From IMG/VR virus record IMGVR_UViG_3300049165_000080, positions 2,016-66,015 of that record: a DNA stretch of 64,000 bases. One strand, given 5' to 3'. The position numbers and the translations under genes were made by a program. Of this stretch, positions 9,323-42,980 are shown piece by piece. Numbering within the stretch: position 1 is the stretch's first letter; the number at the start of each line of letters is the position of its first letter. This DNA comes from a virus. Lineage: Duplodnaviria; Caudoviricetes. The notes beneath the pieces were generated by a model that worked only from the letters and a program-made list of their open reading frames with translations, did not search any database and had not been told where the DNA came from.

Positions 9323-9879
9323 TGGCCCGCCCTCAGGTCGTCGCCTTCGAGCACCACGACCGTCGAGCCGTCAGCAAGCCGCGATGTGATCCGCTCGCCC
9401 AGCTTCTCGTCCAGGTTGTCGAGGTTGGAGGTGATGATCGTGGGGCGGGACTGCGCCCACCTCGTGTCGATGACGGGCAGCAGCAGTTCCCGTGTCCACT
9501 CGTTGATCCGAAAGCTGCCCAGGTCATCGAGCGCCAGGACGTCAACCTCGCGCATCTCGCCGAGCCGTTCACGGTCGGCGGGCGGGCCGACGATCTCCTG
9601 CCACTCAGCCTGGCTGCACATCATGATTTCGCCGCCGTATCCGGCTTTGAGGGCGCGTTCCATGACTTCCCAGCTCGACCAGGTCTTGGCGACGCCGGTC
9701 GGTCCGAACAGGACCAGGTTCCCCGCGGTGCGGTCGAACAGGCGCGAACCCCAGTCGGCGATGTCGTCGTGGAGCTCGCCGGCGTGGCGGAGCCGTACGG
9801 GCCGCTTGGCCTGGAAGTCGGCGACGCGCTTACGGCGCCGTGCGGCGCGCCACTCCGACAGGTTGTCGTCGTCGGTCAT
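9319..9879 (-). CDS. DnaC/IstB-like AAA+ helicase loader
   Basis: GPTGVAKT Walker A, LALDDLG Walker B, IITSN, RITSRL. Confidence 0.9.
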   Translation of the reverse strand: MTDDDNLSEWRAARRRKRVADFQAKRPVRLRHAGELHDDIADWGSRLFDRTAGNLVLFGPTGVAKTWSSWEVMERALKAGYGGEIMMCSQAEWQEIVGPPADRERLGEMREVDVLALDDLGSFRINEWTRELLLPVIDTRWAQSRPTIITSNLDNLDEKLGERITSRLADGSTVVVLEGDDLRAGQ

Positions 9880-22987: not shown

Positions 22988-23326
22988 TCATGCCGCGCCC
23001 TGCTGCCGGTAGAGGCGGCTGACGGAGAAGTCAGCGGTCGGGATGTTCGCGGCGTTCGCCGGCATGGGCTTGTGCTGCTGCACTGGCCTGGCGGGCTGCG
23101 GCTTGCGGCGCTCGGCCGTCTGCTGCTTCTCGCGCGGCTTGGCCTGCTTGGGCTCCTGTGCGCCGTCGCGGATGATCTGGGTGAGCTGTTCGTCGGTCCA
23201 CGAAACGTGATGGCCGATCTTCGTGCGGGGGATGTTGCCTGCCGCACCCTGCTGGTACATCCAACTGGGGCTCTTGCCGACGATCAGAGCCGCCTGGTGT
23301 ACGTCGTACTTCTTGGGGGGCGTCAT
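22988..23326 (-). CDS. Excisionase-like HTH protein
   Basis: YDVHQAALIVGKSPSWMY...IPRTKIGHHVSWT. Confidence 0.8.
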   Translation of the reverse strand: MTPPKKYDVHQAALIVGKSPSWMYQQGAAGNIPRTKIGHHVSWTDEQLTQIIRDGAQEPKQAKPREKQQTAERRKPQPARPVQQHKPMPANAANIPTADFSVSRLYRQQGAA

Positions 23327-23580
23327 GCGGGCTTCCGCTCGGGCTCGCTGTCGGGTGTGAGTAGGTCGTCGATCTCGACGTTGAGCGCTGTCGCCAGTGC
23401 GGTCAGGAGGGGCGGCGAGGGCTTGTCGCCGCGCTCCAGCTGGCTGATGCGGGTGCGGTCGATCTTGTGTCCAGCCTCGCCGCAGAGGCGTGCGAGGTCC
23501 GCCTGCAGGAGCCCGCCGCGTTCGCGGTGTCGCCGGAGGCGTCGGCCGTCGAACGGGAGGCTGTTCTCCGTCTTTGCCAT
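23323..23580 (-). CDS. Cro-like XRE repressor
   Basis: LRRHRERGGLLQADLAR...ISQLERGDKPSP; first gene of the leftward arm. Confidence 0.88.
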   Translation of the reverse strand: MAKTENSLPFDGRRLRRHRERGGLLQADLARLCGEAGHKIDRTRISQLERGDKPSPPLLTALATALNVEIDDLLTPDSEPERKPA

Positions 23581-23738: not shown

Positions 23739-24197
23739 ATGCAGCCCGACCGCGAAGCTCCAGGTCGCCTAGATGCCGCGATGGACAAGAGGCGACTAGA
23801 ACTACGGCCACCGCTGAAGTGGAACCAGGTCGCCGAGAGAGCCGGCCTGTCCATCGGACACCTCAGCCGCATACGTAAGGGCGAGGCCCCGATCACCAAG
23901 CTGGCGGCCACACAGATCGAGACGGCCCTTGAGTGGGAGCCGGGAACCGTCGCCCAGATCATGGCCGACGAGACGACGGACACCGCCATCCCCAGCGTCG
24001 CCCCCTTGAAGGTCGTCCCGTCTCCCGGCGACTTCGCCGCGATCGAAAACCCTTCTCCGACCGAGGCGGCGATGATCGCCTACATGGCTGCGATGCGGAA
24101 GGAGATCGAGGAGCTCAACGCGAAAGTGGACGCCCTCGCGCGCGAACGCGATCGAGACGAGCCCAGCCAGAGCAGCCGTGACCAGAAGAGGGCATAA
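23739..24197 (+). CDS. CI-like immunity repressor
   Basis: WNQVAERAGLSIGHLSRIRKGE...IETALEWEPG; divergent from cro. Confidence 0.85.
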   Translation: MQPDREAPGRLDAAMDKRRLELRPPLKWNQVAERAGLSIGHLSRIRKGEAPITKLAATQIETALEWEPGTVAQIMADETTDTAIPSVAPLKVVPSPGDFAAIENPSPTEAAMIAYMAAMRKEIEELNAKVDALARERDRDEPSQSSRDQKRA

Positions 24198-25604: not shown

Positions 25605-27326
25605 ATGGCACACGCGTATGTGCGCAATGGCGTGATCAACGTCCGATGGCGGAACGCTCCAGGTAAGACCCCTAAGTGGCCGTCCACCTCCCTCAACCCG
25701 GAAACTGGCCGGCCTTTCAAGACGGAGACCGAAGCGGAGAAGTGGGGCAACGAGCAGGAGGTGAAAGCCCGGCTCGGTCTCCTCGACGAGCCCGAGCCGG
25801 AGGCCGCGGATGATGACATCACCGTCAACGAGTGGTTCGTCCGCTGGTGGGACGGCCTCGATGTCGGCCTGCGAGCACGCGGCAATTACGCCTACCTGTT
25901 CCGGGCGCACGTCCTGCCGGAGTGGGGCGAGTGGAAGCTGGGGGACATCAAGGCTTCCGACGTCAACGCCTGGGAACAGCGCATGATCAAGGCAGGGTAC
26001 GCGCGTGACGGTGTCGCCAGCGGCGCCCGGACGCGCCTGTCGACCCTACTCGGCGATGCGGTCACCGAGAAGCTGATCGGCTCCAACCCTGCGCTGCGAC
26101 AGCGGCACCGGGGGCGCCGCTCCGGAGTCGGCACGGGGGGCCGCGGCAAGGAGAAGCAGGCGCTCACCCCGTTCGAGGCGCTGGCACTCGCCGAGCGGAT
26201 GGGCGTCATGTCGGGCCGCGACGACGAGTTCATCATGGGCGTCACCATGGCGTGGGGGACGCTCCGCTACGGCGAGGCGATCGGGCTGCAGCGCGCGTAC
26301 GTACGACTGGGCCAGATCCGCGTCGACTGGCAACTCATCGAAGCGGGCGGCGACTTCTACCTCGGACCGCCGAAGGACGACAGCAACAGGGATGTCGACA
26401 TCCCGCCGTTCTTGCAAGGCTTACTGAACCGGCAGATCGCCTCCCATCCGGAGCGGCGGTGCAGGTGCACGCCGAAGTCGATCGACGGCCAGCAGGAGCA
26501 GCCGTGCCAGGGCGGCGGCGCGTTCGTCTTCCTGGGCGAGCGCGGCGGCCACCTCCGCAACAGCAACTTCGCGCGGCGGGTGTTCGACCCTGCGACCGAT
26601 GGGTGGTACCCGACTTCGAAGGGCAGGCGCGGGACGAAGGAGCACCGGGACAAGGACCGGAAGGCCGGCGTGGCCTACAAGCCGATCCTGGTCGAACTGG
26701 ATAGCCCGTGGCCGGGCTCGCCGCTCCCGGCGTGGCCGGCGGCTGTCCCGGGGCAGCCGTACGAGGCTCCGCCGGTGCGCGGCTATCAGCGGCGCCCGCT
26801 CGGGCTGGGTGTGAACGTGGCCTCGTCGCGGACGGACCTGGTGGAGTTCGCTATCGGGCGGGGGGTGGCGGTGGAGGTGGCACACCAGATGACCCGGAAC
26901 GAGATTTTGGACCGGTTCGTTCGCTCCACCTATGTGTCGGAGTACGCGCCGGTCGCGTCGTGGGCGCCGATCAAGGAAGGGGTGACTCCGCACGAGTTGG
27001 CCCGGCACACGCATGCGACGTGGCTGATGGATCTGGGGACGCCGCTGCAACTCCGAGACGATCGGATGGGGCACGCGTCGCCGGAGATGCGGGGCATGCG
27101 CGGGACGTACTCGCATGTGTCACGGGAGTCGCGGGTGTGGCTGCGCGGGGAGTTGGAGCGGCTGTGGCAGGACGCGTTGGCGCGGCGGGCGTGGTTCGGT
27201 CTGCATTCTCCGGTCGCGGCGCTCGACGAGTTGCTGTCTCCGTTCCGTGACGGGAGGAAGGTTCCGGTCGCGCCTCACGAGTCGCGCGGGGAGGTGCTCC
27301 AATTCCCCGCCGTGCAGGTGGGTTAA
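25605..27326 (+). CDS. int: Tyrosine integrase with large insertions
   Basis: LRYGE (R), HELARHTHAT (HxxxR), RMGH, YSH; SAM-like N-terminal domain; next to attP. Confidence 0.92.
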   Translation: MAHAYVRNGVINVRWRNAPGKTPKWPSTSLNPETGRPFKTETEAEKWGNEQEVKARLGLLDEPEPEAADDDITVNEWFVRWWDGLDVGLRARGNYAYLFRAHVLPEWGEWKLGDIKASDVNAWEQRMIKAGYARDGVASGARTRLSTLLGDAVTEKLIGSNPALRQRHRGRRSGVGTGGRGKEKQALTPFEALALAERMGVMSGRDDEFIMGVTMAWGTLRYGEAIGLQRAYVRLGQIRVDWQLIEAGGDFYLGPPKDDSNRDVDIPPFLQGLLNRQIASHPERRCRCTPKSIDGQQEQPCQGGGAFVFLGERGGHLRNSNFARRVFDPATDGWYPTSKGRRGTKEHRDKDRKAGVAYKPILVELDSPWPGSPLPAWPAAVPGQPYEAPPVRGYQRRPLGLGVNVASSRTDLVEFAIGRGVAVEVAHQMTRNEILDRFVRSTYVSEYAPVASWAPIKEGVTPHELARHTHATWLMDLGTPLQLRDDRMGHASPEMRGMRGTYSHVSRESRVWLRGELERLWQDALARRAWFGLHSPVAALDELLSPFRDGRKVPVAPHESRGEVLQFPAVQVG

Positions 27327-27360
27327 TCGACTCCGTCGCGCAAATATCGCGCACAACACG

Positions 27361-27397
27361 AAACGCCCGACTCCAAGTGATCTTGGATCGGGCGTTT
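27361..27397. terminator. Hairpin terminator between int and the att core
   Basis: AAACGCCCGA..TCCAAG-TGAT-CTTGGA..TCGGGCGTTT. Confidence 0.8.
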
Positions 27398-27410
27398 TGC
27401 CTTGTCAGAC

Positions 27411-27457
27411 TGGGAGCCCCCAAACGGAATCGAACCGTTGACCTTCTCCTTACCATG
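27411..27457 (-). tRNA. 3' half of tRNA-Thr(GGT); att core, not a complete tRNA
   Basis: Reverse complement CATGGTAAGGAGAAGGTCAACGGTTCGATTCCGTTTGGGGGCTCCCA = anticodon loop, T arm and acceptor 3' strand; no D arm or 5' strand upstream. Confidence 0.88.
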
Positions 27458-27601
27458 CAGATCCGGCCATACCGCCCACCAGGCCGGGACCGCTAAGCCG
27501 CAGGTCAGCGTACCAACCTTTATCAGCCAGTATCAGCCACGCGAGATCATTCACAGGCGACCGTCGCGCAAATATCGCGCAGCATGATCGACTCGCCACC
27601 G

Positions 27602-27868
27602 TCACGATCTGTCACCCGCGTTGGGCCACTCCTCCGGCGGCGCTACGAACGTCCCCAGCGACGGCACCGGACGCACATACCCCTGCGCCTCCAACTCGTC
27701 AACCGCATGCCGAGCTGTGTTCAAACCGATACCGAACTCCTGAGTCATCCTCTGCAGGCTCGGGATCTTCGTCCGTGGCGGATAGACGCCATCCAGGATC
27801 CGCTGCCGGAGAACCTCCATGAGCTGTAGCCAGCGAGGCCGTTCCGGATCCGGCACCCAATCGATCAT
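27602..27868 (-). CDS. GntR-family wHTH regulator (Kor-like)
   Basis: LRQRILDGVYPPRTKIPS...FGIGLNTARHAVDELEAQG...GTFV. Confidence 0.92.
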   Translation of the reverse strand: MIDWVPDPERPRWLQLMEVLRQRILDGVYPPRTKIPSLQRMTQEFGIGLNTARHAVDELEAQGYVRPVPSLGTFVAPPEEWPNAGDRS

Positions 27869-28234
27869 GAAGAAACGGTAGTGATACCAGGCAGTACTCA
27901 GTCCGCCGGGAACTGCCCGGACGCGCCTGGGCATGCCTGGGCATGCCCATGACAAACGGCGGGTAGAGGGACGAAAGCGGCGGCGCGGGAAACACTCCTG
28001 CCGGAGCTGTCGGGCCCGCGCCGTCGCACCCCCACAATCACCGAGTGCGGGGACTGGGAGTGCGGGGACAAGACGCTTCCGGCAAGGGCAGCTTTCTTCC
28101 GCCTCGGGAGGGGCCATCTCTACCCGGAGGTAGAGCCGTATGTCCCGCATCCGAGAACGTTCCAAAGGCTGCACATCAAGCGGGCAAGATGCGCGTCTAA
28201 CACCCCCGTCATCACCTACCCCCCAGGAGAATGC

Positions 28235-28927
28235 ATGCGTCTCATCGCACGCGCTGCCGCCGCTGTCATCGCCGCGGCGGTCCTGCCCGCTCTCGCATTA
28301 CCGGCCGGCGCGGCAGCTAAGCCGAAGCTGCCGAAGGGCACGATCATCGCGGTCGTCACCAAAATTGTGGACGGGGACACGATCGACGTCCGCCGGGCCG
28401 GACGAAGCATGCGGGTCCGACTGCTGGAGGTCGACACCCCCGAGCGGGGAAAGTGCTGGTTCTCGTCGGCGACGAAGCGGACGTCGTCCCTGCTGCCGGT
28501 CGGTAAGGCCGTCTACCTGCTGCGGGACAAGGACCCGAAAGACCAGTACGGGCGGTGGCTGTACTACGCGTTCAACGCGAAGGGTGTGCACGTCAACCGC
28601 AGCCTCGTCCGGTACGGGTACGGCAAAGCCGTCCTCTACAAGCCCAACGACCGCTACATCAGCGTGATGCGCGCCGACCAGGTCAAGGCCAAGAAGGAAC
28701 GGCTGCGCATCTGGTCCGGCCGGTGCGACAAGCCCGGCGGCACCACACCCACCCCGACACCCACCCCCACGCCGACGAAGACCACCAAGCCATCCGGCAC
28801 CGACCCCCGGTACAGGACGTGCGGCGATGCCAACGCGGCAGGCTACGGCCCGTACCGCCGCGGGGTTGACGCGGAGTACTCCTGGTACCAGGACCGCGAC
28901 GGAGACGGAGTCGTCTGCGAGCGGTAG
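28235..28927 (+). CDS. Secreted staphylococcal-type (SNase) nuclease with C-terminal Excalibur Ca-binding domain
   Basis: Signal peptide; IVDGDTI, RLLEVDTPE, DQYGRWL; PT linker; C..A...DRDGDGVVCE. Confidence 0.92.
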   Translation: MRLIARAAAAVIAAAVLPALALPAGAAAKPKLPKGTIIAVVTKIVDGDTIDVRRAGRSMRVRLLEVDTPERGKCWFSSATKRTSSLLPVGKAVYLLRDKDPKDQYGRWLYYAFNAKGVHVNRSLVRYGYGKAVLYKPNDRYISVMRADQVKAKKERLRIWSGRCDKPGGTTPTPTPTPTPTKTTKPSGTDPRYRTCGDANAAGYGPYRRGVDAEYSWYQDRDGDGVVCER

Positions 28928-30455: not shown

Positions 30456-30707
30456 CTACTCCTCAGCCGCCCGAAGCTTCTCAGCGGCGCCCGCCAGCAC
30501 GTAGCTGCCAGTGCCCCGCTCGGTCTCCACCAGACCGGCCTCGCGCAACGCCCGATGCACCTTCTGGGCGACCGTGTTCGACATGTCCCACTCGGTCATG
30601 AGCTCGTGCACCGTGGGCACCCTGTCACCAGGGGCCAGCTCGCCGGCGCGGATCTGGTCGCAGATCGACGCGTATGCCTGGCGCCACTTCGACCGACTCG
30701 GATGCAT
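30456..30707 (-). CDS. Second GntR-family wHTH regulator
   Basis: IRAGELAPGDRVPT...VAQKVHRALREAGLV...GTGSYV. Confidence 0.92.
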   Translation of the reverse strand: MHPSRSKWRQAYASICDQIRAGELAPGDRVPTVHELMTEWDMSNTVAQKVHRALREAGLVETERGTGSYVLAGAAEKLRAAEE

Positions 30708-30884
30708 GCGATCAAGGCTCGTGTGCCGTACCAGGGTGGACATAGCAACACGTAGACGCCCCGTAATACACATGGGGATGGTTTAAGACACCTTGACGTG
30801 GCAGTCTTGGTGCCTGACATAAATCGGGCTCGGCAAGCGCGCGAACGCTCACCGAGCCCTGATCGCACACTGGAGGTGCGACAT

Positions 30885-31950: not shown

Positions 31951-32089
31951 TGAGTAGTTCTCTGAGTAGGTGGAGTGAGTAGTTGGGTGGAAGTGACTTC
32001 CGGTACCTGCGGAACTCATTTCCGGCACCTACCGGAAGTGGCTTCCGGTAGCCCTGGAAGTGGTTTCCGGTACTGGAAGTCACTTCCGG
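31951..32089. repeat. Second iteron array: 5x GGAA(G/C)T-N2-(C/T)TTCCGG plus 3x TGAGTAG
   Basis: Copies at 31989, 32011, 32034, 32056 and 32075; TGAGTAG at 31951, 31963 and 31976. Confidence 0.85.
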
Positions 32090-32103
32090 CACCGAACGCC
32101 CGA

Positions 32104-32832
32104 TCACCAGTCGTCTCCGCGCGACAGCCGGAACATCTTCCAGACCTCCTCATTGCCCTGCTTGCTCCACACGGGCTTGCCCGACTCCGCCATCCGACGA
32201 TTCCAGGCGTCGTAGCACCACGGCTCGTCGCGGCCCTTGGTCTTGCGTGGCGCCGGACAGAAGACGAACTGGCGGACGTTGAACGTCACCCGGCCGTCAT
32301 CGGTGAGCGTGCAGTTGCCTTGCGGGTTGATGAGCTTGTCGCAGTGCTGGCAGGTGAACTTCTTCGATCGAGGGCCGAGGATTGGCAGGTTCGCCCAGTT
32401 GTCCGGGATGACCAGCTCGTACTCGTCGGCCTTGCGCGCGTGCGCGACCGCGTGAGACACGCGCTCGGCCAGCCCCAGCCCTCGGATCACCGCCCACGCG
32501 GTTCGGACCGTACGTTCGCTGTAGCCGGTCTCTCGGGCGAGCCGCTCGTTGCTGGGATGGCAGGAGGTGCCGTCGAACAAGTCTGCGTAGTCCATCGCGG
32601 ACCGAGCCACGAGCTTGACGGAGGATTCCACGAGAAGAATCCGGATAAGGCTGTTCCATCGAGCGACGAAAGGCTTATCGTCGTCATCGGGTCGAATCAC
32701 AGTTGCTAGTGCCTTAGCTGAGCGGTGAAGGAAAGCAACGAGACCCGGAACCCTCGCAGCGCGCGGCGAGCCGTACGGTGGCCAGCGCCCGCGCCAGGTT
32801 CGGATCGATGGCCGACCGGAGTGTTGGCGCAC
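32104..32832 (-). CDS. Replication-initiator-like wHTH protein with Cys cluster (start uncertain)
   Basis: SCHPSNERLARETGYSERTVRTAWAVIRGLGL wHTH typical of Rep/replisome organisers; CQHC; iterons follow the stop. Confidence 0.7.
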   Translation of the reverse strand: MRQHSGRPSIRTWRGRWPPYGSPRAARVPGLVAFLHRSAKALATVIRPDDDDKPFVARWNSLIRILLVESSVKLVARSAMDYADLFDGTSCHPSNERLARETGYSERTVRTAWAVIRGLGLAERVSHAVAHARKADEYELVIPDNWANLPILGPRSKKFTCQHCDKLINPQGNCTLTDDGRVTFNVRQFVFCPAPRKTKGRDEPWCYDAWNRRMAESGKPVWSKQGNEEVWKMFRLSRGDDW

Positions 32833-32850
32833 CCGGCAGCCCCGCAGAAC

Positions 32851-32883
32851 ACGAAGCCCCCGTCCTATGGCGGGGGCTTTCGT
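32851..32883. terminator. Hairpin terminator
   Basis: ACGAAGCCCCCGTCC / GGCGGGGGCTTTCGT. Confidence 0.7.
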
Positions 32884-32891
32884 CTTGTCGG

Positions 32892-33191
32892 TTACTCGGC
32901 GTCTTCGTCGCGGCGGCGCGGGCGGCGCAGGATCGCGAGGATCTCCTCCTGCGACATCGCGGCGATCCGCTCGATCTCTTCCTCGGTAGGCCGCTCGGGC
33001 AGCTCGGCGCCGGGCACGCGCAGGAACCAGTCCACGAGTTGGCTCATGACTTCGGTGCGGTTGCTCTTGACCGACAAGGACGCAATGCCAAACCGCCCCC
33101 ACTTCAGGGCGCCCATTCTCATGCTCTGCTTCGGCGTCTTCGGTTGGTTCGGCACACGGTAACCGTAAGTGCTCATGGTCTCGGTTGTCAT
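32892..33191 (-). CDS. Ribbon-helix-helix-like small regulator (KorB/CopG-like)
   Basis: PKTPKQSMRMG..KW..F......RTEVMSQLVDWFL..PGAELPERP; divergent from the transfer operon. Confidence 0.65.
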   Translation of the reverse strand: MTTETMSTYGYRVPNQPKTPKQSMRMGALKWGRFGIASLSVKSNRTEVMSQLVDWFLRVPGAELPERPTEEEIERIAAMSQEEILAILRRPRRRDEDAE

Positions 33192-33267
33192 TACGCCTCC
33201 AGGGTTGAGGTGGGGGGACACCTCAGGTTAGGGTGGGGGGACACCTAGAGTCAAAGGGAGTCGGTAC

Positions 33268-34800
33268 ATGAACGGCGAGGGCGCTCACTCTGTACAAGAC
33301 CCGGATTGGTGGGCGTGGATCTGGACCCATATCTCCCCCTACCTCCCGCCCGTGTGGGTGTGGTGGATCGTCGGCGGCGCCTGCTGCGTCGTCGCCACCT
33401 GGCTGCTCACCCGCAAGCTCCTGCGCACAAGCGGCAAGGCGTGGACCGCCGGTAGGGCGTACCTGTCCAGCCGTTCCATCGAGGACGTGCTGACCGTCGT
33501 GGCCGCCTCGATCGCCACGGGCGTCTCCGCTCAGGGCATGTGGCGGTTCGCCGAAGACGTGCTGCACCTGCCGTTCGTGCTGCGCATCCTGCTGTTCGCG
33601 TTCATCGAGGTGGCGATCGTCACCAGCGCGGTGCGGGCCCGCCGGAACATGCGGGAGAACTTCTCCGCCGGCGTGGACGGCATGGCCGTGTGGGCTCTCA
33701 CCGTCCTGACCGCGGTCCTGTCCAGCATGGACGCCCGCAGCCTGCCCGAGGCCGTGTTCAGGCTCGCCGCCCCGCTGGTCGCAGCGTGGTTGTGGGAGCG
33801 CGGCATGGCCATCGAGCGGCATCGCATCCGCGGCACCGGGCGGATCAACTGGCGTCTCACCCCCGAGCGCATCATGGTGTGGGCCGGCGTAGCGGAGGCG
33901 CGGGACCGCACCACGTCCGAAGTAGACGCGCACCGGCGGATCACTCGTGTCGCTCTCGCAGCCAAGCGCGTACACCAGCTCCGACAGGCAGGCGTCTCCG
34001 ACCGCAAGCTAGCTCGCGCCGTCGCGCGGCGGGACCGGATGCTCGACCGGGCAGTGGAACACACCGGCCTCGCCCGTGACGCCTCCACGCAGAGCGCACT
34101 GCTCGACATGGTGACGACACTCGGCGGCGGCGACGACCTGTCCCGGAAGCTCGACACCGCGTCTCCGCCGTGGGCGCATCTCGACCATCCGGCCGTCACC
34201 GGCAACGCGCGGCACGCCGAGGCCGTCGAACTGGCTGCCGCGCTGCGCGACCACACCGAGGCGCTCAAGGAGCGCGGCGACGCCGAACTGACCGCCACCA
34301 TCGTGTCGCTCGCCACCTACGTTGCCGGGCGCGATGGGCTACCGGCGCCAGTCCTGTCACCAGGCCCCTTCTCGGCCGCCGAACGGGGCGATGTTCGCCC
34401 CGCCGACGGCGCCCCCGCCGTCGGCCCCGATCGACCGCAGCCCGTCCTGGAACTGGCTCCCGAGACCGACGCGCACGGCGCCGAGGAAGGCCAAACCGAA
34501 GACAGTGGCGAGGACAACGACACCGACCGGAGCAAGCCCACCGAGCAGGACAATCAGGCAGCCGAGGAGTGGATCCGCCGTCGGTGCCGCGGTCAGAACG
34601 GTGTCGGCCAGAAGCCTTCGCCGGCCGACGTCCGGGAGCGTCATGGGTTCTCCCACGGGTGGGCTCGCCGCCGGATCACTCAGGTGCAGTCCCGGATGCT
34701 CTCGCAGGGGTACGTGTTCGAAGACAACGGGCTGGTGCTGTCGCCGGCGCGGGCGTCCGAGAGTGTGGACGCTGCCGAGCGCGGCGAGGTGCCGGCATGA
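33268..34800 (+). CDS. SpdB/DUF2637-like multi-TM spread protein with C-terminal HTH
   Basis: Several TM helices (SAQGMWRF, AFIEVA, RLAAPLVAAWLWER), coiled and low-complexity linker, HTH (SPADVRERHGFSHGWARR). Confidence 0.7.
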   Translation: MNGEGAHSVQDPDWWAWIWTHISPYLPPVWVWWIVGGACCVVATWLLTRKLLRTSGKAWTAGRAYLSSRSIEDVLTVVAASIATGVSAQGMWRFAEDVLHLPFVLRILLFAFIEVAIVTSAVRARRNMRENFSAGVDGMAVWALTVLTAVLSSMDARSLPEAVFRLAAPLVAAWLWERGMAIERHRIRGTGRINWRLTPERIMVWAGVAEARDRTTSEVDAHRRITRVALAAKRVHQLRQAGVSDRKLARAVARRDRMLDRAVEHTGLARDASTQSALLDMVTTLGGGDDLSRKLDTASPPWAHLDHPAVTGNARHAEAVELAAALRDHTEALKERGDAELTATIVSLATYVAGRDGLPAPVLSPGPFSAAERGDVRPADGAPAVGPDRPQPVLELAPETDAHGAEEGQTEDSGEDNDTDRSKPTEQDNQAAEEWIRRRCRGQNGVGQKPSPADVRERHGFSHGWARRRITQVQSRMLSQGYVFEDNGLVLSPARASESVDAAERGEVPA

Positions 34801-34919
34801 GTCCCACCGCGGTGACGTTCGCCACCGTCGTCGCTGTGCTGTTCGCCGCTCACCAGTTCGGCGGCCACTGGTACGGCCAGACTCCACCAGCAGTTCTCGG
34901 CAAGGCCGACCCCCAGTGA
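34797..34919 (+). pseudogene. Truncated DUF3307-like fragment
   Basis: FATVVAVLFAAHQFGGHWYGQT resembles the AH.xgDHW.QT start of DUF3307; stops at 40 aa. Confidence 0.45.
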
Positions 34920-34933
34920 GAAAGGACCAGCGC

Positions 34934-35236
34934 ATGAGCGAGCAGACCCCCTTCCAGTCGGTGCCCAGGTCGAACAGGAAGCCGCCCGCCACCGCCCCGC
35001 CCGCGCCCTCACCGCGAGCCGCACAGCCGCCCGCGGTACACAGCCTGCTGATCGTCGCCGCCGTGATAGGCGGCGCCATCTGGCTCGGCCTGCGGCACGC
35101 CGCAGTCGATCCGGCCCAGGCCGGTGCCGCAGGCGGAGCGGTGTTCGGGCTGCTGGTCGGCGCCGCACTGCCCGGCTGGTGTCAGCGGCTCGGTGACCGG
35201 CTGGGCATCTCCAAGCGGACGCGAGGCCGGCGATGA
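34934..35236 (+). CDS. Small two-TM membrane protein (Spd-like)
   Basis: AAAGGA RBS; two hydrophobic helices. Confidence 0.65.
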   Translation: MSEQTPFQSVPRSNRKPPATAPPAPSPRAAQPPAVHSLLIVAAVIGGAIWLGLRHAAVDPAQAGAAGGAVFGLLVGAALPGWCQRLGDRLGISKRTRGRR

Positions 35237-35478
35237 GGACCGCCCGGCGGTGGGTGGCCTACATCCTCTGGCTCGTGGTCGCCGCCCCCATTCACGTATG
35301 GATCATTTCGTTGCAGCGCCTCGGTGTGCTGGTGGGTGAGGCGCTGGTGTGGCTGGTCGACCTGGCCGCCGCGCTGGCCGGATGGCCGCCCGCCCGTGTC
35401 CTGCTCACGCGTGCGGCGAGGCAGGCGGCCGGAGCTGCCGCCCACGAATTTCGCCCCCCGTCCTGGAGATCAGCATGA
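35233..35478 (+). CDS. Small membrane protein (Spd-like)
   Basis: Hydrophobic; coupled. Confidence 0.6.
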   Translation: MRTARRWVAYILWLVVAAPIHVWIISLQRLGVLVGEALVWLVDLAAALAGWPPARVLLTRAARQAAGAAAHEFRPPSWRSA

Positions 35479-35921
35479 CGATTCGCGGTAAGCGCATGGT
35501 GTGGAAAGGCCGCAACCACACCCGGAAGAACAAGGGTGACCTGCGGGCACTGTTCGCGATCCCGATGACGTCGCCGTCTGCGGTGGCCGACTTCGCCGAC
35601 CAGCTGCGCGCCGTAGGGATGCGCCTGGAGGTGGGCGTCGAAGGGTCGATCGACGACCTTGATGACAACCTCGTCGCGATGATCCGCGAGACCTACAAGA
35701 TGGGCCGGATGGCGGCCCGGTACCGCACCCGCCGGGTCCGGCAACGCGGTGAGGCGCTGCAGAGGCTGGCGGAGGCGTTCGCCAAGAACGCGGTCAAGTT
35801 GAACAGGGAGTTCGAGCAAGTCCTGGCCGCGCTGGAGGACGACGAAGAGCGCGATGCCGCCAAGAAGGGCAAGAAGACGACCCGCCGCACGCCTCGCCCG
35901 GCGTTCAGCCTGGATGACTGA
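35475..35921 (+). CDS. TraA-like plasmid transfer accessory protein
   Basis: Basic helical protein directly upstream of traB, as in Streptomyces traA-traB; the TSPSAVADFADQLR segment resembles TraA. Confidence 0.55.
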   Translation: MTIRGKRMVWKGRNHTRKNKGDLRALFAIPMTSPSAVADFADQLRAVGMRLEVGVEGSIDDLDDNLVAMIRETYKMGRMAARYRTRRVRQRGEALQRLAEAFAKNAVKLNREFEQVLAALEDDEERDAAKKGKKTTRRTPRPAFSLDD

Positions 35922-35929
35922 GGGACGAC

Positions 35930-37978
35930 ATGAGCAGGGTCGAACAGCCCAAGGAGTCCACACGATCGCAGGTCACCCACCGCTACGTCTCCAAGACACT
36001 CCCGATCATGGCGGGGCTGATCTCCATCGTCGGCTACGCGGGGCTGATCGGCGTGACAACGGCATTCACGCCCAACACGCCAGCGGGGCGAGTCGTGCTG
36101 ATGGTGCTGGCCGCGGTGCTTTCAGCGTGGGCATGGGCCGCAGCCAAAGCGCGCCCCCGCAAGGTACGGGTTCACCTGGCGCTCACGGCCGGCGCCGTGT
36201 CTCTGGCCTGTCTGGCGCACGAACTGATCGAGTTCGCCGCCATCTGGCAATGGAGCGCGCTGTTGTGGCTGGCGCTCGCCGTGTCGTGGGTACTGCACAT
36301 CCTGGTCGAGGAGTCGGCGCGCGACCCCCAGGCGGCCGGACCTAAAGCCATCGCCAGCGCAGGCGACCCTCTGCAGGCGGTGTTCACGCTGGCCGCCCAC
36401 GAGACGCATGCCGAGCCGCTCGCGGTGCGCACCACGAAAGCGACCCCGCACAAGATTTCAGGAGTAGTGACGCTTGAGGCCGGCGACGACGCCGAGCAGT
36501 TCCTGAAGGACGGCGGCCTGGCCTCGGTCGAGTCCGGAGCGAACCTACCGCCCGGATCGCTACAGGGTGACCCCTCGCGGCACTCACGCCGTGAGGTGCA
36601 CGTGAACCTGTCAGACCCGACCGCACTCGACACCCCGCCGCGCTGGCCCGGCCCCTCCCGGCCGGGCGCGTCAATCGCCGACCCGATCCACCTCGGCCTC
36701 TTCCAGACTCTCGACGTGTGCGAGGTGACGCTGATCGGCGGGCACGTCGCCATCACCGGCACGTCCGGCGCGGGCAAAGGCTTCGGCGGCGCGTGGGGCG
36801 CCCTCGGCGAGGCGATCACCCGGCAGGACTTGGCCGTGTTCGCCGCCGACCCGGCCAAGGACGAGCAGACGTTCGGGCCGCTGGCCGCGGCGATGCACGT
36901 TGTGGAGTACACGTCCGGCGGCGGGGTGGCCCTGCTGGGCGACCTCAACGCGGAGATTCCGCGCCGGACGGCATGGCTGTCGGCGCGCAAGTATGCGACC
37001 TGGCGTTCAGGGTGCGGCCTGAAGTACTGGCTGGTGTGGCTGGAGGAGTTCCCACGCCTGGTCGCCGAGATGACCGACAGGGAGTGGGAGGACTTCAAGC
37101 TGCTGCTGAAGGAGATCCGCTCAGCCGGCGGGACCGTGGTCATCAGCCTGCAGGACCTTCACCACAGCGAGGTCGACGACATCGGCGTCATCCGCGGACA
37201 GCTCGGCCGGTGGACCTTCGGCATGATGGGCTGGGAGCAGGCCAAACGGTCACTGTCGGACCGGCAGAAGTCGTTCGAGCTGGCCCCCGGCGGGGCGCCG
37301 CAGGACTGGCAGACGAACTGTCCCGGCCGGTCACTGATCGACCTGAAGGGCATGCCGGCCGAGCTGGTGACGGTGCCGCTGCACACGTGGAACTGGGGCG
37401 AGGACGACGCCGAGCGTTACGCCACGATGGAGGCGCACGTCGCCGGGCACACCCACACCAAGGACCTGCCCGACGACGAGTTCACGGCGAGGATCGTGGC
37501 TAAGGCGCGGCAGCGGTCAGAGGCTCACGGCGATGACCTCGACGACGAGGAACGCCAGGACATCCGCGGCAGCCAGGAGTCGACGAGCGTCGGCGAAGCC
37601 GACCATGTCCTGCGCGAGGCCGGCATCTATCCGGAGCCGGGAGACGACGGCATCGACCCGCGCCAGCCGGTGGTGTCGACGGCAGACCCGGCGATCACCT
37701 TCCCTGGCCAGCCGGAGCCTGAGCCGCAGTTGACGCCCGAGCTGGCGCGTCGGCGGCTTCTGGAAACGCTCTGCGAGTGGGCGGTCGAAGGCCGGACCGA
37801 GTTCGCGACCGCCGACATGCGCCCGATATGGGAGGCGGCCGGCTACACCCGCCAGTGGGCGCAGAAGGCGGCGCACAAACTGCACGACGACGGACTGCTG
37901 CTCCGCGAGGGCGGCGTGTGGGTCCTGATTCCGGAGGCGCTGCTGAGGGCCCGCGAGCGCCAGATGGCGGAGGTGTAG
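35930..37978 (+). CDS. traB: TraB-like FtsK/SpoIIIE conjugative dsDNA translocase
   Basis: N-terminal TM helices; Walker A GTSGAGKG; Walker B WLEE; IRSAGG.V.ISLQ; C-terminal wHTH TRQWAQKAAHKLHDDGLL. Confidence 0.85.
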   Translation: MSRVEQPKESTRSQVTHRYVSKTLPIMAGLISIVGYAGLIGVTTAFTPNTPAGRVVLMVLAAVLSAWAWAAAKARPRKVRVHLALTAGAVSLACLAHELIEFAAIWQWSALLWLALAVSWVLHILVEESARDPQAAGPKAIASAGDPLQAVFTLAAHETHAEPLAVRTTKATPHKISGVVTLEAGDDAEQFLKDGGLASVESGANLPPGSLQGDPSRHSRREVHVNLSDPTALDTPPRWPGPSRPGASIADPIHLGLFQTLDVCEVTLIGGHVAITGTSGAGKGFGGAWGALGEAITRQDLAVFAADPAKDEQTFGPLAAAMHVVEYTSGGGVALLGDLNAEIPRRTAWLSARKYATWRSGCGLKYWLVWLEEFPRLVAEMTDREWEDFKLLLKEIRSAGGTVVISLQDLHHSEVDDIGVIRGQLGRWTFGMMGWEQAKRSLSDRQKSFELAPGGAPQDWQTNCPGRSLIDLKGMPAELVTVPLHTWNWGEDDAERYATMEAHVAGHTHTKDLPDDEFTARIVAKARQRSEAHGDDLDDEERQDIRGSQESTSVGEADHVLREAGIYPEPGDDGIDPRQPVVSTADPAITFPGQPEPEPQLTPELARRRLLETLCEWAVEGRTEFATADMRPIWEAAGYTRQWAQKAAHKLHDDGLLLREGGVWVLIPEALLRARERQMAEV

Positions 37979-37981
37979 CCG

Positions 37982-38112
37982 GGTGGCACTTCTGGAGCGT
38001 GGCACCCCGTAACGGGCCGGACGCGAGGGTTACAGGTCAACGGGGTGCAACGCGCCCGTGGCAGCCCATCGTGGCACCTCCGTGGCAGGGACCGTTGCAC
38101 CCCCCGTGGCAC
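37982..38112 (+). repeat. clt-like locus: 8 copies of the 8-mer (C/G)GT(G/T)GCA(C/G)
   Basis: Copies at 37982, 37998, 38045 (inverted), 38057, 38070, 38081, 38093 and 38105, immediately after the traB stop. Confidence 0.75.
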
Positions 38113-38178
38113 CCCCTGAGACGCCCCTCACTCATCATCCTCACCGCTTCACCCCCAAGGCAGACAGGAGCCACGCAG

Positions 38179-38439
38179 ATGCTGATCGACATGCTCGACA
38201 CCCTCACCCAGGCCGCAGCCGCCACCTCGTGGATGGACGGGGCACTGTGCGCCCAAGCCGACCCAGAGGAGTGGTTCCCCAACCCCGGTGAGCACTCCCA
38301 GGCTGCGAAGGCGATCTGTGACGGCTGTCCGATCCGTCAGGAGTGCCTCGACTACGCCCGCGCCGAGGACATCCGGTGGGGCGTTTGGGGCGGCCTGACC
38401 GCCAGCGAGCGCCTCCCCGATCAAGACCTCGCCGCCTGA
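38179..38439 (+). CDS. whiB: Second WhiB family protein
   Basis: ALCAQADPEEWFP...AKAICDGCPIRQEC...GVWGG. Confidence 0.93.
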   Translation: MLIDMLDTLTQAAAATSWMDGALCAQADPEEWFPNPGEHSQAAKAICDGCPIRQECLDYARAEDIRWGVWGGLTASERLPDQDLAA

Positions 38440-39514: not shown

Positions 39515-39718
39515 GTGATGGCGTTACTGCACCGTACGGAGCAGGACCAACCAGAAGTCGAAGTCATAGAGCTCACGGGCGACGAGTACCAAGAAGCCCG
39601 GAGCAATGCCCTGAGCGAACTCGGGGTCACCTATGACGAGTTGGCGCGACAGGCTAAGGAACGCAGGTTCGCGTCGCTCAAGCACCGGAAGCTCTGGCTC
39701 CTCATCCGCGAGTATTGA
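39515..39718 (+). CDS. Small acidic/helical protein (antitoxin-like partner)
   Basis: GAGGAGG RBS; overlaps the next gene. Confidence 0.7.
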   Translation: MMALLHRTEQDQPEVEVIELTGDEYQEARSNALSELGVTYDELARQAKERRFASLKHRKLWLLIREY

Positions 39719-40391
39719 TGTAGCGAAGGTCCACCAGGAGGCTCGTAAGTTCGGCGAGTACGTCCAGCACACGCTGAACGCCACCGTCTGTGATCACGCG
39801 AGGATCACAGCGATGGTCTCCCCGCGAGATCGCGACATCGTCATCGTCGCGAAGGGGCTGTCCAAGACATCCCTGGATAGCGAGTCCTTCCCCCTTCGCC
39901 CCGTACCGCGCTCGGCCATCCGCGCCTGGATGGATCTGTCCTTCCGCTTCTGCTACGACCCCGAAGGCGAGTACTTCACCGTCCTATCGTCCTTCGTCGC
40001 GATCTACGGCGACGAACAAGGCGACACATGCCTCTGCCACTTCGACTACGAACGCAACAAGGCAGACGGCTACCCAGAAGCACACATCCAGGTGTACGGG
40101 CAATCGCCCGTCCTGGACTCCTGGGGAGGCCCCCTGCTGGAGCGTGGCCTCCACCGCCTCCACTTCCCCGCCGGCCACCGCCGCTTCCGCTGGTGCCTCG
40201 AAGACGTCATCGAGTTCGTCATCGCAGAGAAGATGGTGGACGCCAAACCCGGCTGGCAGGACGTCATCGAGCCCGGCCGCAAGATGTTCCATCAGATGCA
40301 GCTGAAGGCCGCCATCCGCCGCGACATCGATACGGCGATCAACTACCTGGAGGACGAGGGGTACACGGTGACCCCACCCCAGAAGCGGTAG
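39633..40391 (+). CDS. Uncharacterised His-motif protein, possible toxin or defence effector (start uncertain)
   Basis: CHFDYER, YPEAHIQ, RLHFP, LEDVIEF; coupled to the small upstream ORF; terminator follows. Confidence 0.65.
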   Translation: MTSWRDRLRNAGSRRSSTGSSGSSSASIDVAKVHQEARKFGEYVQHTLNATVCDHARITAMVSPRDRDIVIVAKGLSKTSLDSESFPLRPVPRSAIRAWMDLSFRFCYDPEGEYFTVLSSFVAIYGDEQGDTCLCHFDYERNKADGYPEAHIQVYGQSPVLDSWGGPLLERGLHRLHFPAGHRRFRWCLEDVIEFVIAEKMVDAKPGWQDVIEPGRKMFHQMQLKAAIRRDIDTAINYLEDEGYTVTPPQKR

Positions 40392-41144: not shown

Positions 41145-41498
41145 TCAGGCGCTGGTGACCGCCGTCTCCTTCGGCTCCTGGTTCTGCCGCAGCATCAGCG
41201 CCAGGACTGCGGCCAAAGCCGCGATGAGGACGCCCTGCTGAGTGGTGGTGAACGTCAAGCCCGGAAGCCCGAACGCCACGATGCCCGTCAGGACGGTCTG
41301 GGCCGCGCCCGTGATGGCTGCTACGACGAACGGGCGCGTGGTCAGCGCCACGATCAGTGCCAGCACACCGTTCGCGATGGTCATCGTGTAGTCGGCGGCG
41401 TCCCCGGTCAGGGTTCCGAACGCGACCAGGACCGCGAGCAGGGACTGCAGGCCGTACAGGATGGCCGCAGGGTCACGGCCGAGAATCTTGAACTGCAT
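41145..41498 (-). CDS. Holin
   Basis: About four TM helices, MQFKILGRDPA start, lysis-cassette position. Confidence 0.8.
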   Translation of the reverse strand: MQFKILGRDPAAILYGLQSLLAVLVAFGTLTGDAADYTMTIANGVLALIVALTTRPFVVAAITGAAQTVLTGIVAFGLPGLTFTTTQQGVLIAALAAVLALMLRQNQEPKETAVTSA

Positions 41499-41507
41499 GA
41501 CAGCCTC

Positions 41508-42071
41508 CTACGGCTTGACGGTGTAGCCGCCGTTCCAGTCCCAGGACTTGCTGGAGTACACGTCACCGTTGGCCTTGCTCACCCAGGCCGTGTCGGCGTC
41601 GTTGTTGTAGAACTGGCCAGCGGTGCCACAGTCGGGGTCGCTGTTGGCGAACAGCTGGTACTCGTTACCGTTGACTTTCCGGTCTCCGCCCCACCTGCGT
41701 CCGTTGAAGACGGTCACGAACTCGCCGTTGGCGATCGTGGTGGTGGCGTTGTCCGGCAGGTTCGTGACCTTGTACGTGTTGCAGCTGTGGGAGTCTCCCG
41801 CCACCGTCTTGGCGTGAGCCCAGTTGTCCTCGACGAGGACGTTCGCGACGTCGATGGAACCGCCGGACACGTTCTGGAACTTCACGAACTCGCGGTTCCG
41901 GTTCGCGTAGGTGTCCACACCCATGGCGTCGGTACCGACCTCAACAATCTTGAGGACGGTGCCAGGCACGTCAGCGGCAGTGGAAGCCGCGGTAGCGGAC
42001 GACGGTACGCCGGCCATGACCGCCGCGGTGGCGAACGTCGTGACCAGGATCAGGGACTTGTTGATGCGCAT
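41508..42071 (-). CDS. Secreted lamin-tail-domain (LTD)-like protein
   Basis: Signal peptide; LKIVEV..D..G.D...N.NREFVKFQN...IDV; YNNDAD. Confidence 0.7.
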   Translation of the reverse strand: MRINKSLILVTTFATAAVMAGVPSSATAASTAADVPGTVLKIVEVGTDAMGVDTYANRNREFVKFQNVSGGSIDVANVLVEDNWAHAKTVAGDSHSCNTYKVTNLPDNATTTIANGEFVTVFNGRRWGGDRKVNGNEYQLFANSDPDCGTAGQFYNNDADTAWVSKANGDVYSSKSWDWNGGYTVKP

Positions 42072-42278
42072 TGAGGGTGACTCCTCGGATGGGTGACATG
42101 CGAAGAGGCGGCCCGCATCTGGCAGGTCCGCCTCGGGACGACTCTCAACGGAGAGCCGGTTAGTTGGCCTCATCAATGAGGCCGGGGATACGCCCGTCTC
42201 CGGGCTCGTGCTGCTCTACGGGCTCGGGATGCCGCGGCAGCCACGTCTGATACGGCCAGTACTGCAGCCAGAAGCTGG

Positions 42279-42980
42279 TCACTTTCCGAGCGCGGCCAGG
42301 ACCGCGTCCAGCTTCTCGTCCAGATCGTCGAGGCGGGACTTGATGCGGTCCTGCTCCGTCTCCAGCTCCTGCAGGACGGCGGCCGGCGAGCGCTCCGACT
42401 CGGTCTTCTCGCCCTTGTTCATTTTGATCCGGGCGTCATGCCAGACAGCGTTAACGTCCACGTCGTCCTCCTCGATGGTCTTCGAGCCGGTGGGGCTCTT
42501 GGTGAAGGTGCCGTCCCGGACCAGCCGGTACAGGGTGTCGCCGGGGCATGAGGTGCTGTAAAAGTCGCGGTGGCCTTTCACCGCGGCGCCGAGTCCGCGG
42601 CCCATCAGATACGCCCGCAGTTCGCGCACCGCTTCGATCTGCGGCGGCGGCGGCTTCTCGCCAGGCCCCGACATGAGCGTCACGCTGTACCAGGTGGTGT
42701 TACCGCCGGGCTGGGCGGCCTGGGCGTGGTTCTCGCCTCGGCCCTCAAACACGAACCCGTGCGGGCACGCCCCGAAGCTGTATCCGATGTCGACCCACTG
42801 CCGGTTTGATCCGGTGTGGAATTTGCGGGTCCGCCGCCAGTAGTCGACGCAGGATGCGTGCGGCTTGCTGGCGAGGCCCTGGTCGGACCCGTCGTAGTGG
42901 ATGACTAGGCCTTGCCGGGGTTTCGCGTAGGCGGCCCCTGTCGTGCCCCAGCCGAACTCGGCACGCTTCACAAGCTGCAT
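42279..42980 (-). CDS. Endolysin, N-acetylmuramoyl-L-alanine amidase (Amidase_2/PGRP-like)
   Basis: LVIHY, WVDIGY, VFEGRG, GHRDFYSTSCPG. Confidence 0.93.
   Translation of the reverse strand: MQLVKRAEFGWGTTGAAYAKPRQGLVIHYDGSDQGLASKPHASCVDYWRRTRKFHTGSNRQWVDIGYSFGACPHGFVFEGRGENHAQAAQPGGNTTWYSVTLMSGPGEKPPPPQIEAVRELRAYLMGRGLGAAVKGHRDFYSTSCPGDTLYRLVRDGTFTKSPTGSKTIEEDDVDVNAVWHDARIKMNKGEKTESERSPAAVLQELETEQDRIKSRLDDLDEKLDAVLAALGK

Follow-up and report, generated by a model that had tools for sequence, protein, structure and literature searches.

A predicted TraB-type conjugation module beside attP in the genome of an integrating actinomycete siphovirus

The IMG/VR virus record IMGVR_UViG_3300049165_000080 is 66,015 bp long, and its bases 2016-66015, a stretch of 64,000 nucleotides that we call the window, were analyzed here. 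Genes were called by third-position GC content (GC3) and annotated with Pfam and PHROG scans. Between a phage attachment site (attP, 27333-27582) and a lysis cassette (41145-42980) lies an accessory block, mainly on the plus strand (27.6-40.4 kb); this is where an initial annotation, made from the letters of the DNA, had placed a set of conjugation genes. Judged from its sequence, the region is a complete actinomycete module for double-stranded DNA conjugation, of the type found on plasmids and on AICEs (integrative and conjugative elements of actinomycetes), carried inside one integrating phage.

The module includes a plus-strand gene (33268-34800) for a 510-amino-acid (aa) SpdB/DUF2637-like protein, which has multiple transmembrane (TM) segments and a long soluble C-terminal part. 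On the same strand follow the genes for two small membrane proteins of 100 aa (34934-35236) and 81 aa (35233-35478), a TraA-like protein of 148 aa (35475-35921) and TraB, a predicted membrane-anchored FtsK-type double-stranded DNA translocase of 682 aa with a C-terminal winged helix-turn-helix (wHTH) domain (35930-37978). An array of short repeats resembling the plasmid transfer locus clt comes next (37982-38113), and a WhiB-like regulator gene (38179-38439, plus strand) ends the operon. The initial annotation had described a single coupled operon. We found that the coupling holds from the first small gene onward: the 81-aa gene overlaps both of its neighbours by 4 bp, such that it and the traA-like gene each start within the preceding stop, and traB begins 8 bp past traA. 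The 510-aa gene is set apart by a gap of 133 bp. All open reading frames (ORFs) of the block are intact, with a coding-type GC3 of 0.85-0.88, and the GC content of the window (65-70%) shows no break in composition at the tra block.

TraB matched the NCBIfam model plasmid_TraB (NF041214) over its full length (E 3.4e-68, 230.7 bits; residues 37-669 aligned to model positions 19-635 of 639). In contrast, the match of chromosomal FtsK proteins from 41 Streptosporangiaceae genomes was limited to model positions 250-420, at about 60 bits. A profile comparison of this kind had been proposed with the initial annotation, and its outcome places the window protein with TraB. By tblastn, the protein also matched the annotated TraB of plasmids pCQ3, pJV1 and pSN22 at 24-28% identity. 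Pfam gave no match for TraB even at E 10, and neither a megablast search of 30-42 kb nor a tblastn search with TraB (E 1e-5) against 50,697 phage records returned a match. A single-protein scan of IMG/VR for TraB found nothing, whereas an alignment-based scan found relatives, which are described below.

The predicted fold agrees with this assignment. The AlphaFold model of TraB (mean predicted local distance difference test score 76.8) contains four N-terminal helices of TM length (11-131), an alpha/beta motor (160-535), a disordered linker and a wHTH domain (603-666). The top Foldseek matches were FtsK motors on double-stranded DNA (6T8O, E 4e-12), and the TcpA coupling protein was also among them. 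The Walker A motif reads GTSGAGKG, with its lysine kept, and the Walker B motif, WLVWLEE, is conserved. The architecture given in the initial annotation, an FtsK-type ATPase with TM segments, Walker motifs and a C-terminal wHTH, is thus upheld by model, motifs and NF041214 alike. The closest homologues of the protein (P0001 in our alignment) are P0004 (91% identity) and P0006 (58%). In a quick maximum-likelihood tree rooted on FtsK, these proteins and P0005 form a clade on a long branch, and TraBs from records with virion genes fall into at least seven separate clades, one of which includes the Streptomyces pCQ3 protein; as few database TraBs come with a known genomic context, the tree is of limited value for judging whether phage-borne TraBs form one clade or how often they were acquired. 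The four proteins of the window clade (58-100% identical) share a further feature: at residues 406-417, the family motif SLQR(S/A)D(Y/W)TQ is changed to SLQDLHHSE and followed by a 2-residue insertion. This change may touch the sensor or arginine-finger region.

Between traB and whiB, the clt-like array comprises about eight copies of GT(G/T)GCA(C/G)C, one of them inverted, around a TTACAGGTCA box. An 8-bp repeat array after traB had been reported in the initial annotation, and its density bears this out: exact GTKGCASC occurs six times within 115 bp (37999-38113) versus 14 times in the other 63.9 kb (Poisson P ~3e-13), and near-copies accompany the six exact ones. Arrays of seven to ten 8-bp repeats lie directly 3' of traB in the window and in four relatives, namely records G014, G007 and G015 and the genome of Nonomuraea typhae, whose TraBs are 26-70% identical to that of the window. 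The layout is the same throughout: first come one or two repeats, of which one is inverted, next a TTACAGGTCA-like box that is conserved, and last five to eight direct 8-bp repeats. It is kept even beside TraBs that have diverged to 26-38% identity. At the equivalent place after traB, pSN22 and pJV1 have CCGCACA(C/G)(C/G) arrays, and pCQ3 likewise has an array of TraB recognition sequences. The CCGCACA repeats are the published clt of pJV1, according to PMC3583192.

Across the window, its relatives and these plasmids, the repeat motif co-varies with the class of the wHTH recognition helix. Helices of the form ...RQWAQK... or ...RSWVQK... pair with GT(G/T)GCACC, those of the form ...RSRAW(L/I)S... 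with CTGACACC (G015 and pCQ3), and those of the form ...RDRSWVS... with CCGCACA. For the window TraB wHTH, the predicted site is the repeat word GTGGCACC. At the level of the sequences compared, a protein and its cognate site would be expected to co-vary in this way. The TTACAGGTCA box of the window (38020-38045) sits mid-array, between the inverted copy and the direct copies; the arrays that follow traB in G014, G007, G015, N. typhae and pCQ3 have such a box in the same middle position, with the form CTTAGGT(C)A in G015 and pCQ3. It could be the site of a second protein, for example TraA.

The 510-aa protein is harder to name. Hydropathy places three to four TM segments within aa 25-155, as expected from the multi-TM protein that the initial annotation had called SpdB/DUF2637-like. 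More than 540 homologues were found, several of which, at 46-51% identity, are named DUF2637 by UniRef. Its protein-atlas features score 0.96 against DUF2637 clusters; SpdB_N and HTH_SpdB_C clusters are close by, and 19 of its 30 nearest named atlas clusters carry DUF2637. The Pfam model itself (PF10935) gave no match even at E 10, and hhalign comparisons of the Spd family were not significant, either with the DUF2637 protein of PhiNon1 (a plasmid-phage of Nonomuraea gerenzanensis) or with the pSN22 protein encoded downstream of traB (L056:3697-4452). We consider the protein SpdB-like with moderate confidence. Its homologues adjoin TraB in G014, G007, G013 and G015, at 62, 48, 50 and 32% identity, respectively.

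The remaining genes of the operon are also kept in N. typhae. The two small membrane proteins, both noted in the initial annotation, have two TM segments each by hydropathy; the 100-aa protein is conserved upstream of traA/traB in N. typhae, where the 81-aa protein has a 56% identical homologue. The TraA-like protein stands directly upstream of traB, as does its 83% identical homologue in N. typhae, and its position and size match those of pSN22, pJV1 and pCQ3, all of which have the traA-traB order; its match to the NCBIfam model plasmid_TraA (NF041213) is weak (E 0.0018, model positions 41-155 of 165, 18 bits versus a cut-off of 80). The WhiB-like regulator (Pfam Whib, E 1.4e-19) is kept downstream of traB in N. 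typhae.

The accessory block also encodes regulators and a candidate second replicon. Of the nearby regulators in the initial annotation, the GntR type is present twice, as short wHTH proteins on the minus strand, and Pfam confirmed no ribbon-helix-helix protein. The first GntR-type gene lies beside attP (27602-28174; Pfam GntR, E 2.5e-11, aa 118-177) and probably starts near aa 103 of its ORF; its homologue adjoins attR in a prophage on scaffold C8 of N. typhae. The second is at 30456-30773 (E 8e-14). The plasmid-like replicon candidate (32030-33102, minus strand) consists of an initiator-like gene (32104-33102), matched by Pfam HTH_36 and by PHROG replication-initiation families, and a 22-bp repeat in three copies downstream of it (32030-32089), found with Tandem Repeats Finder (TRF). 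This gene is of the HTH_36 type and not of the RepSA/RepAM type, and its role in replication is a prediction. A separate phage initiator with internal iterons lies, together with DnaB, at 7961-10889, and the element thus holds two initiator/iteron sets. The promoter region between the divergent rep and spd genes contains a 23-bp tandem repeat (33203-33246; TRF score 74), a candidate operator. The second initiator-like gene with its repeats and the rep/spd repeat complete an AICE-like set of genes and sites. No CbiA/ParA match was found in the record.

Next to this block lies the integration system. The tyrosine integrase gene (25605-27326, plus strand; phrog_1 integrase, E 9e-37, and a weak Pfam Phage_integrase match) is open from 25335, with a likely start at 25605. 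At 573 aa its product is unusually long, and the PHROG and Pfam matches of this protein fall into two blocks with a gap, suggestive of a large insertion that separates the core-binding part from the catalytic one. Within attP, the core (~27411-27460, minus strand) corresponds to the 3' ~48-49 nucleotides of tRNA-Thr(GGT). In N. typhae, the 3' half of this tRNA shares 98% identity with the core, which also matches the tRNA-Thr(GGT) gene in four other Streptosporangiaceae genomes. Two 21-bp direct repeats (att arms, at 27334 and 27563; two copies in the record) flank the core. A tyrosine integrase with a tRNA att site is a trait of AICEs.

How many elements does the record contain? The int-to-traB block holds every AICE module, and the record is a metagenome-type IMG/VR contig; both points fit an independent AICE lying in or beside a phage, or a chimeric assembly. 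Across all 66 kb of the record, however, there is one Phage_integrase match, no serine or resolvase-type recombinase and a single copy of the att core, as the initial annotation had stated for integrase and att. We also looked in the window for long-range direct repeats that could form another att pair flanking the block, and nothing convincing emerged; ARAGORN found no complete tRNA there. One integrase, one att core and no resolvase together indicate one integrating unit in the excised state. The block is flanked by phage genes on either side. Moreover, attP lies between int and the tra block, and both must therefore belong to one circle.

The same architecture is present in other genomes. 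The alignment-based IMG/VR scan for TraB relatives returned 17 loci in 16 records. We searched the TraB records for virion hallmarks (TerL, portal PF04860 and HK97 capsid PF05065) and found portal, capsid or TerL genes in at least 12 of the 17, counting the window record; the TerL of four of the IMG/VR TraB records is related to that of the window. The most telling record is G014 (71.6 kb, CheckV completeness 93%). It shares 87-96% identity with the window in TerS, TerL, portal and capsid (TerL 96%, portal 89%, capsid 94%), and its genes follow the window order, from virion through lysis, TraB/Spd block and staphylococcal nuclease (SNase) gene to early genes. Its Spd is 62% identical to that of the window, but its TraB just 36%. 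In G022, the distance between TraB and a TerL with 42% identity to that of the window is 1.1 kb. The exact 510-aa Spd protein is present on six contigs, the longest of which is 67.9 kb. Since independent records and isolate genomes share the architecture and Spd recurs on six contigs, the readings as a chimera or a nested AICE are very unlikely, and we give them hardly any weight.

The cultured actinomycete N. typhae provides two further examples. On its scaffold C2, TraB (70% identity), TraA (83%), the small proteins and WhiB lie 3 kb past a prophage amidase gene, and the portal and capsid of this prophage belong to a different family from those of the window. A second TraB on C2 lies ~19 kb from the other portal gene of the scaffold; these two PF04860 portals are the only ones in the whole 11.4-Mb genome. 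The N. typhae TraB locus had been considered as a phage-free example, with no match to a window virion protein within +/-50 kb, and this was rejected on account of the portal and capsid of the other type 20 kb away. The region C2:1-91859 of this genome (G001) is a single 'provirus' call in IMG/VR (UViG_2895374923_000001). Its portal genes lie at 26.4 and 64.7 kb, and a TraB gene stands at either outer end (5.5 and 89.1 kb), an arrangement that resembles two prophages placed back to back, each with a TraB.

The window-related terminase of N. typhae is on a different scaffold from traB, C8. There, a tRNA-Val(CAC) gene (49223-49297) and perfect 47-bp direct repeats of its 3' end (49252-49298 and 146815-146861) bound a 97.6-kb prophage (G001:C8:49252-146861). 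Compared with the window, its integrase is 29% and its cI 37% identical, its early genes are up to 81% identical, its holin is 85% identical, and its homologue of the 252-aa protein g67 (described below) is 74% identical. It also encloses TerL, portal, a Spd homologue (60%) and the GntR homologue beside attR, and, when circularized, it has the very GntR-attP-int order of the window. The slot that TraB occupies in the window is taken by a 777-aa FtsK_SpoIIIE protein (PF01580, E 5e-9) that is not an orthologue of the window TraB, which indicates that the slot is conserved and its occupant exchanged. The co-occurrence of virion genes and TraB, for which a search had been proposed with the initial annotation, is common among the TraB records; the case bounded by one att pair holds this other translocase.

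These comparisons bear on whether the block is passive cargo, that is, a fragment of an AICE or plasmid captured by illegitimate recombination between attP and lysis. The region matches the position of the dispensable 'b-region' of lambdoid genomes, where mosaic exchange is common, and outside the head genes the window genome and G014 share DNA in patches only. Against capture stand the intact ORFs with their coding-type GC3, the clt arrays conserved beside strongly diverged TraBs, and the recurrence of the module at the same position with unrelated head modules and different translocases. Like-for-like replacement at a fixed position argues that the block is not passive cargo, an explanation that we consider improbable. 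From these results, and as far as comparison of genomes can tell, we conclude that the block is a recurrent and positionally conserved part of the design of these phages, and not an accident or a chimera.

The initial annotation knew of no description of this lifestyle for tailed phages. Precedents exist in pZL12 (PMC3583192) and in the SpdB2 homologues on phages phiC31 and VWB (PMC4447253). PMC3583192 states that conjugal transfer of pZL12 depends on a major tra gene as well as on adjacent genes, and that it has a plasmid/lytic-phage cycle. Its GenBank record, GQ919031, is named Streptomyces phage ZL12 and covers 90 kb, with ParAB, an FtsK/SpoIIIE-like protein, GntR and tail genes. Thus pZL12 (Zhong et al. 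2010) and the window element each combine tailed-phage virion genes, an FtsK/TraB-type tra gene and GntR as one replicon. They differ in that pZL12 is a 90-kb plasmid prophage partitioned by ParAB, whereas the window element, at 66-68 kb, lacks ParA and has an integrase and a tRNA-Thr attP; in host, which is Streptomyces for pZL12 and of the family Streptosporangiaceae for the window element; and in Tra, that of pZL12 lying on a very long branch away from the window TraB.

Plasmid pCQ3 (NC_013449.1), deposited as a Streptomyces plasmid, has TraA and TraB as named by PGAP and, after them, genes for a major capsid protein, HK97 gp10, a protein of tape-measure size and tail proteins. Its traA-traB genes are followed by a repeat array like that of G015, and from its sequence and annotation it looks like a conjugative phage-plasmid. 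NC_019307.1 (pCQ4 in PMC4924298), which is about the size of pCQ3, also turned up as a tblastn match to TraB. PhiNon1 was described as a plasmid-phage, both circular and integrated in tRNA-Val, and was likened to pZL12 by its authors (D'Argenio et al. 2016, PMC5431353), whose paper does not describe a transfer module. Its record (NZ_LT559120) encodes a DUF2637 protein and a TM-anchored Walker A ATPase with a weak FtsK match between int and the virion genes. PhiNon1 and the window element are alike in Nonomuraea-type host genus and overall layout; no PhiNon1 protein had detectable homology to the window TraB or Spd, and the target of PhiNon1, as of the C8 prophage, is tRNA-Val, whereas that of the window element is tRNA-Thr.

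With AICEs and small plasmids (pSAM2, SLP1, pMEA300; pSN22, pJV1, pSVH1, pIJ101), the window element shares an integrase with a tRNA att site, a GntR regulator, a predicted initiator, the traA-traB order, an Spd-like protein and clt-type repeats of 8-9 bp right after traB. The AICEs pSAM2, SLP1 and pMEA300 span 10.9-17.3 kb (PMC2440964), and the annotations of pSN22 and pJV1 (11 kb, 10-11 features) contain no virion genes, whereas the window module sits in a 66-kb phage. The window GntR proteins are also distinct in consisting of the wHTH alone (~90-105 aa), and its initiator is HTH_36, unlike the RepSA/RepAM of AICEs. We do not file the element as an AICE, given its 66 kb and its complete virion and lysis modules, since AICEs are not defined by spread in virus form; its tra block is AICE-like. 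Our literature search found no paper that joins an AICE with capsid and terminase. We conclude that the element is not a new kind: it is an integrative, apparently common variant of the pZL12-type conjugative plasmid-phage, in Streptosporangiaceae. It is marked by an integrase with a tRNA attP and no ParA, by the conserved slot of the module and by the conserved clt layout.

The rest of the window is organized as a phage. A complete siphovirus virion module was recognized by PHROGs on the minus strand (43586-63938): TerS, TerL, portal, protease, decoration, major head, glycosyltransferase, major tail, tape measure and minor tail proteins. TerL is 63% identical to that of Streptomyces phages SF1/SF3 and 59% to that of VWB. 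The lysis cassette, also on the minus strand, encodes a holin (41145-41498; PHROG holin, E 2e-15), an LTD-like protein (41508-42176) and an amidase endolysin (42279-42980; PHROG endolysin, E 8e-38, and Pfam Amidase_2). Early genes occupy 1-23580 on the minus strand and include an initiator, DnaB (7961-9322), an antirepressor and, first in the leftward early operon, a Cro-like HTH gene (23323-23580; Pfam HTH_31/HTH_3, E 9e-12). Divergent from the latter is a cI-like repressor candidate with a weak HTH_3 match (23739-24197, plus strand), whose homologues adjoin int in the N. typhae C8 prophage. The order is thus terminase to lysis, accessory region, attP-int, cI/cro and early genes. Lambdoid genomes have this order when packaged or circular, but not as integrated prophages. 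We read the window as almost all of the genome, in non-integrated form, of a temperate siphovirus whose host is a Nonomuraea-like soil actinomycete.

Several other features were noted along the genome. The HTH_36 initiator of the early region (9876-10889) has internal palindromic iterons (10317-10613); a palindromic unit of ~25 bp, CCACCGGCCAATTTGGCCACTGGAT, is present in several copies inside the gene, resembling an origin within a lambda-O-type gene. At the far end of the early region is a gene for a GmrSD_N (DUF262) domain protein (1593-2264), which may be a defence or anti-defence gene. The accessory block encodes a protein with SNase and Excalibur domains (28235-28927); it is 75% identical in G014, so that we regard it as a conserved accessory gene, possibly for a secreted nuclease. 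Finally, a two-gene cassette without family matches (67 and 252 aa; 39515-40391) lies between the tra block and lysis, and its 252-aa protein has its N. typhae C8 homologue, 74% identical, at the equivalent position.

How would the module act? In a lysogen, the element would be excised from tRNA-Thr(GGT) by its own tyrosine integrase, and the module, which shares its strand with cI and int, would be transcribed separately from the late genes, with the GntR proteins as its probable regulators. TraB would assemble as a membrane pore and motor at hyphal contacts, recognize the 8-bp clt repeats through its C-terminal wHTH, and pump the circular double-stranded phage genome into the neighbouring hypha. 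Spd and the small membrane proteins would carry the DNA across septa, and the second replicon would support establishment before re-integration. By an alternative route, the same genome would be packaged and released by lysis. Such phages can probably move between hyphae both as virions and by conjugation. We think it rather probable, with real room for doubt, that TraB-dependent intercellular transfer of the element takes place.

Sequence and comparative genomics support the hybrid of phage and AICE that the initial annotation had proposed; its conjugal movement is inferred. Several points weigh against this interpretation. A phage genome of 66 kb may be repressed or induced rather than transferred. 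The record is labelled 'linear' in IMG/VR, with a CheckV completeness estimate of 81%, and its ends are unproven as cos ends. The NF041214 score of TraB is far under the equivalog cut-off of 800 bits; none of the 41 Streptosporangiaceae genomes searched reaches that cut-off, which indicates that the model is tuned to Streptomyces, and by sequence the window TraB is a divergent family member and not an equivalog. Its Walker A motif has GKG instead of GKS/T, a form also present in five other family members, and SLQR reads SLQD in its four-member subclade, which makes an altered ATPase conceivable. Profile methods give the SpdB assignment weak support, and the IMG/VR sample behind the count of virion-bearing TraB records is biased to sequences already called viral.

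A further possibility is that TraB and Spd serve the phage within a single mycelium, moving its DNA, either replicating or freshly injected, across septal cross-walls to adjacent compartments for a larger burst or colony-wide lysogeny, with no true conjugation. The position of the module is fixed while its translocase is swapped, between TraB clades or for the plain FtsK_SpoIIIE protein of the N. typhae C8 prophage, and this would fit a generic need for pumping. On plasmids, however, TraB and clt act in the inter-mycelial step and Spd in the intramycelial one, and the window keeps the full set, including traA and clt. In addition, its module shares the strand of cI and int and has regulators of its own and a candidate second replicon, in the manner of an AICE and outside the lytic operons. 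In favour of the intramycelial reading, such spread of phage DNA was proposed by Thoma et al. 2015 (PMC4447253) for the SpdB2 homologues on phiC31 and VWB, the latter being the relative in TerL; in the sentence cited these homologues are noted alone, whereas the window adds TraA, TraB and clt. Against it, pZL12 does transfer conjugally (PMC3583192). We regard movement confined to one mycelium as unlikely, although it is the strongest competitor of conjugal transfer.

Gene flow by phages and gene flow by conjugative elements are usually considered apart, and TraB-type systems appear to be missed both by relaxase-based scoring and by MOB-suite, which labels pCQ3, pSN22 and pJV1 'non-mobilizable'. 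To our knowledge, CONJscan does not cover the relaxase-free TraB system. It was with CONJscan, by relaxase and mating-pair-formation apparatus, that conjugation was scored in the phage-plasmid survey of Pfeifer 2021. Tentatively, at somewhat less than even odds in our judgement, we suggest that a widespread and unrecognized class of integrative conjugative temperate phages exists in mycelial actinomycetes (at least Streptosporangiaceae and some Streptomyces), in which TraB, clt and Spd form a standard, exchangeable attP-proximal module giving a virion-free, receptor-independent route from hypha to hypha, and which detectors of relaxases and mating-pair formation miss. Cultured carriers of related elements, N. 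typhae p1410 with its integrated prophages and N. gerenzanensis with PhiNon1, provide a test system, and the clt layout and the co-variation of helix and motif offer a natural series for the study of DNA recognition by TraB. If these elements do transfer through TraB, a temperate phage could enter recipients without its receptor, or pass through a colony that stays alive, and the modelling of host range, lysogen spread and gene flow in antibiotic-producing actinomycetes would change.

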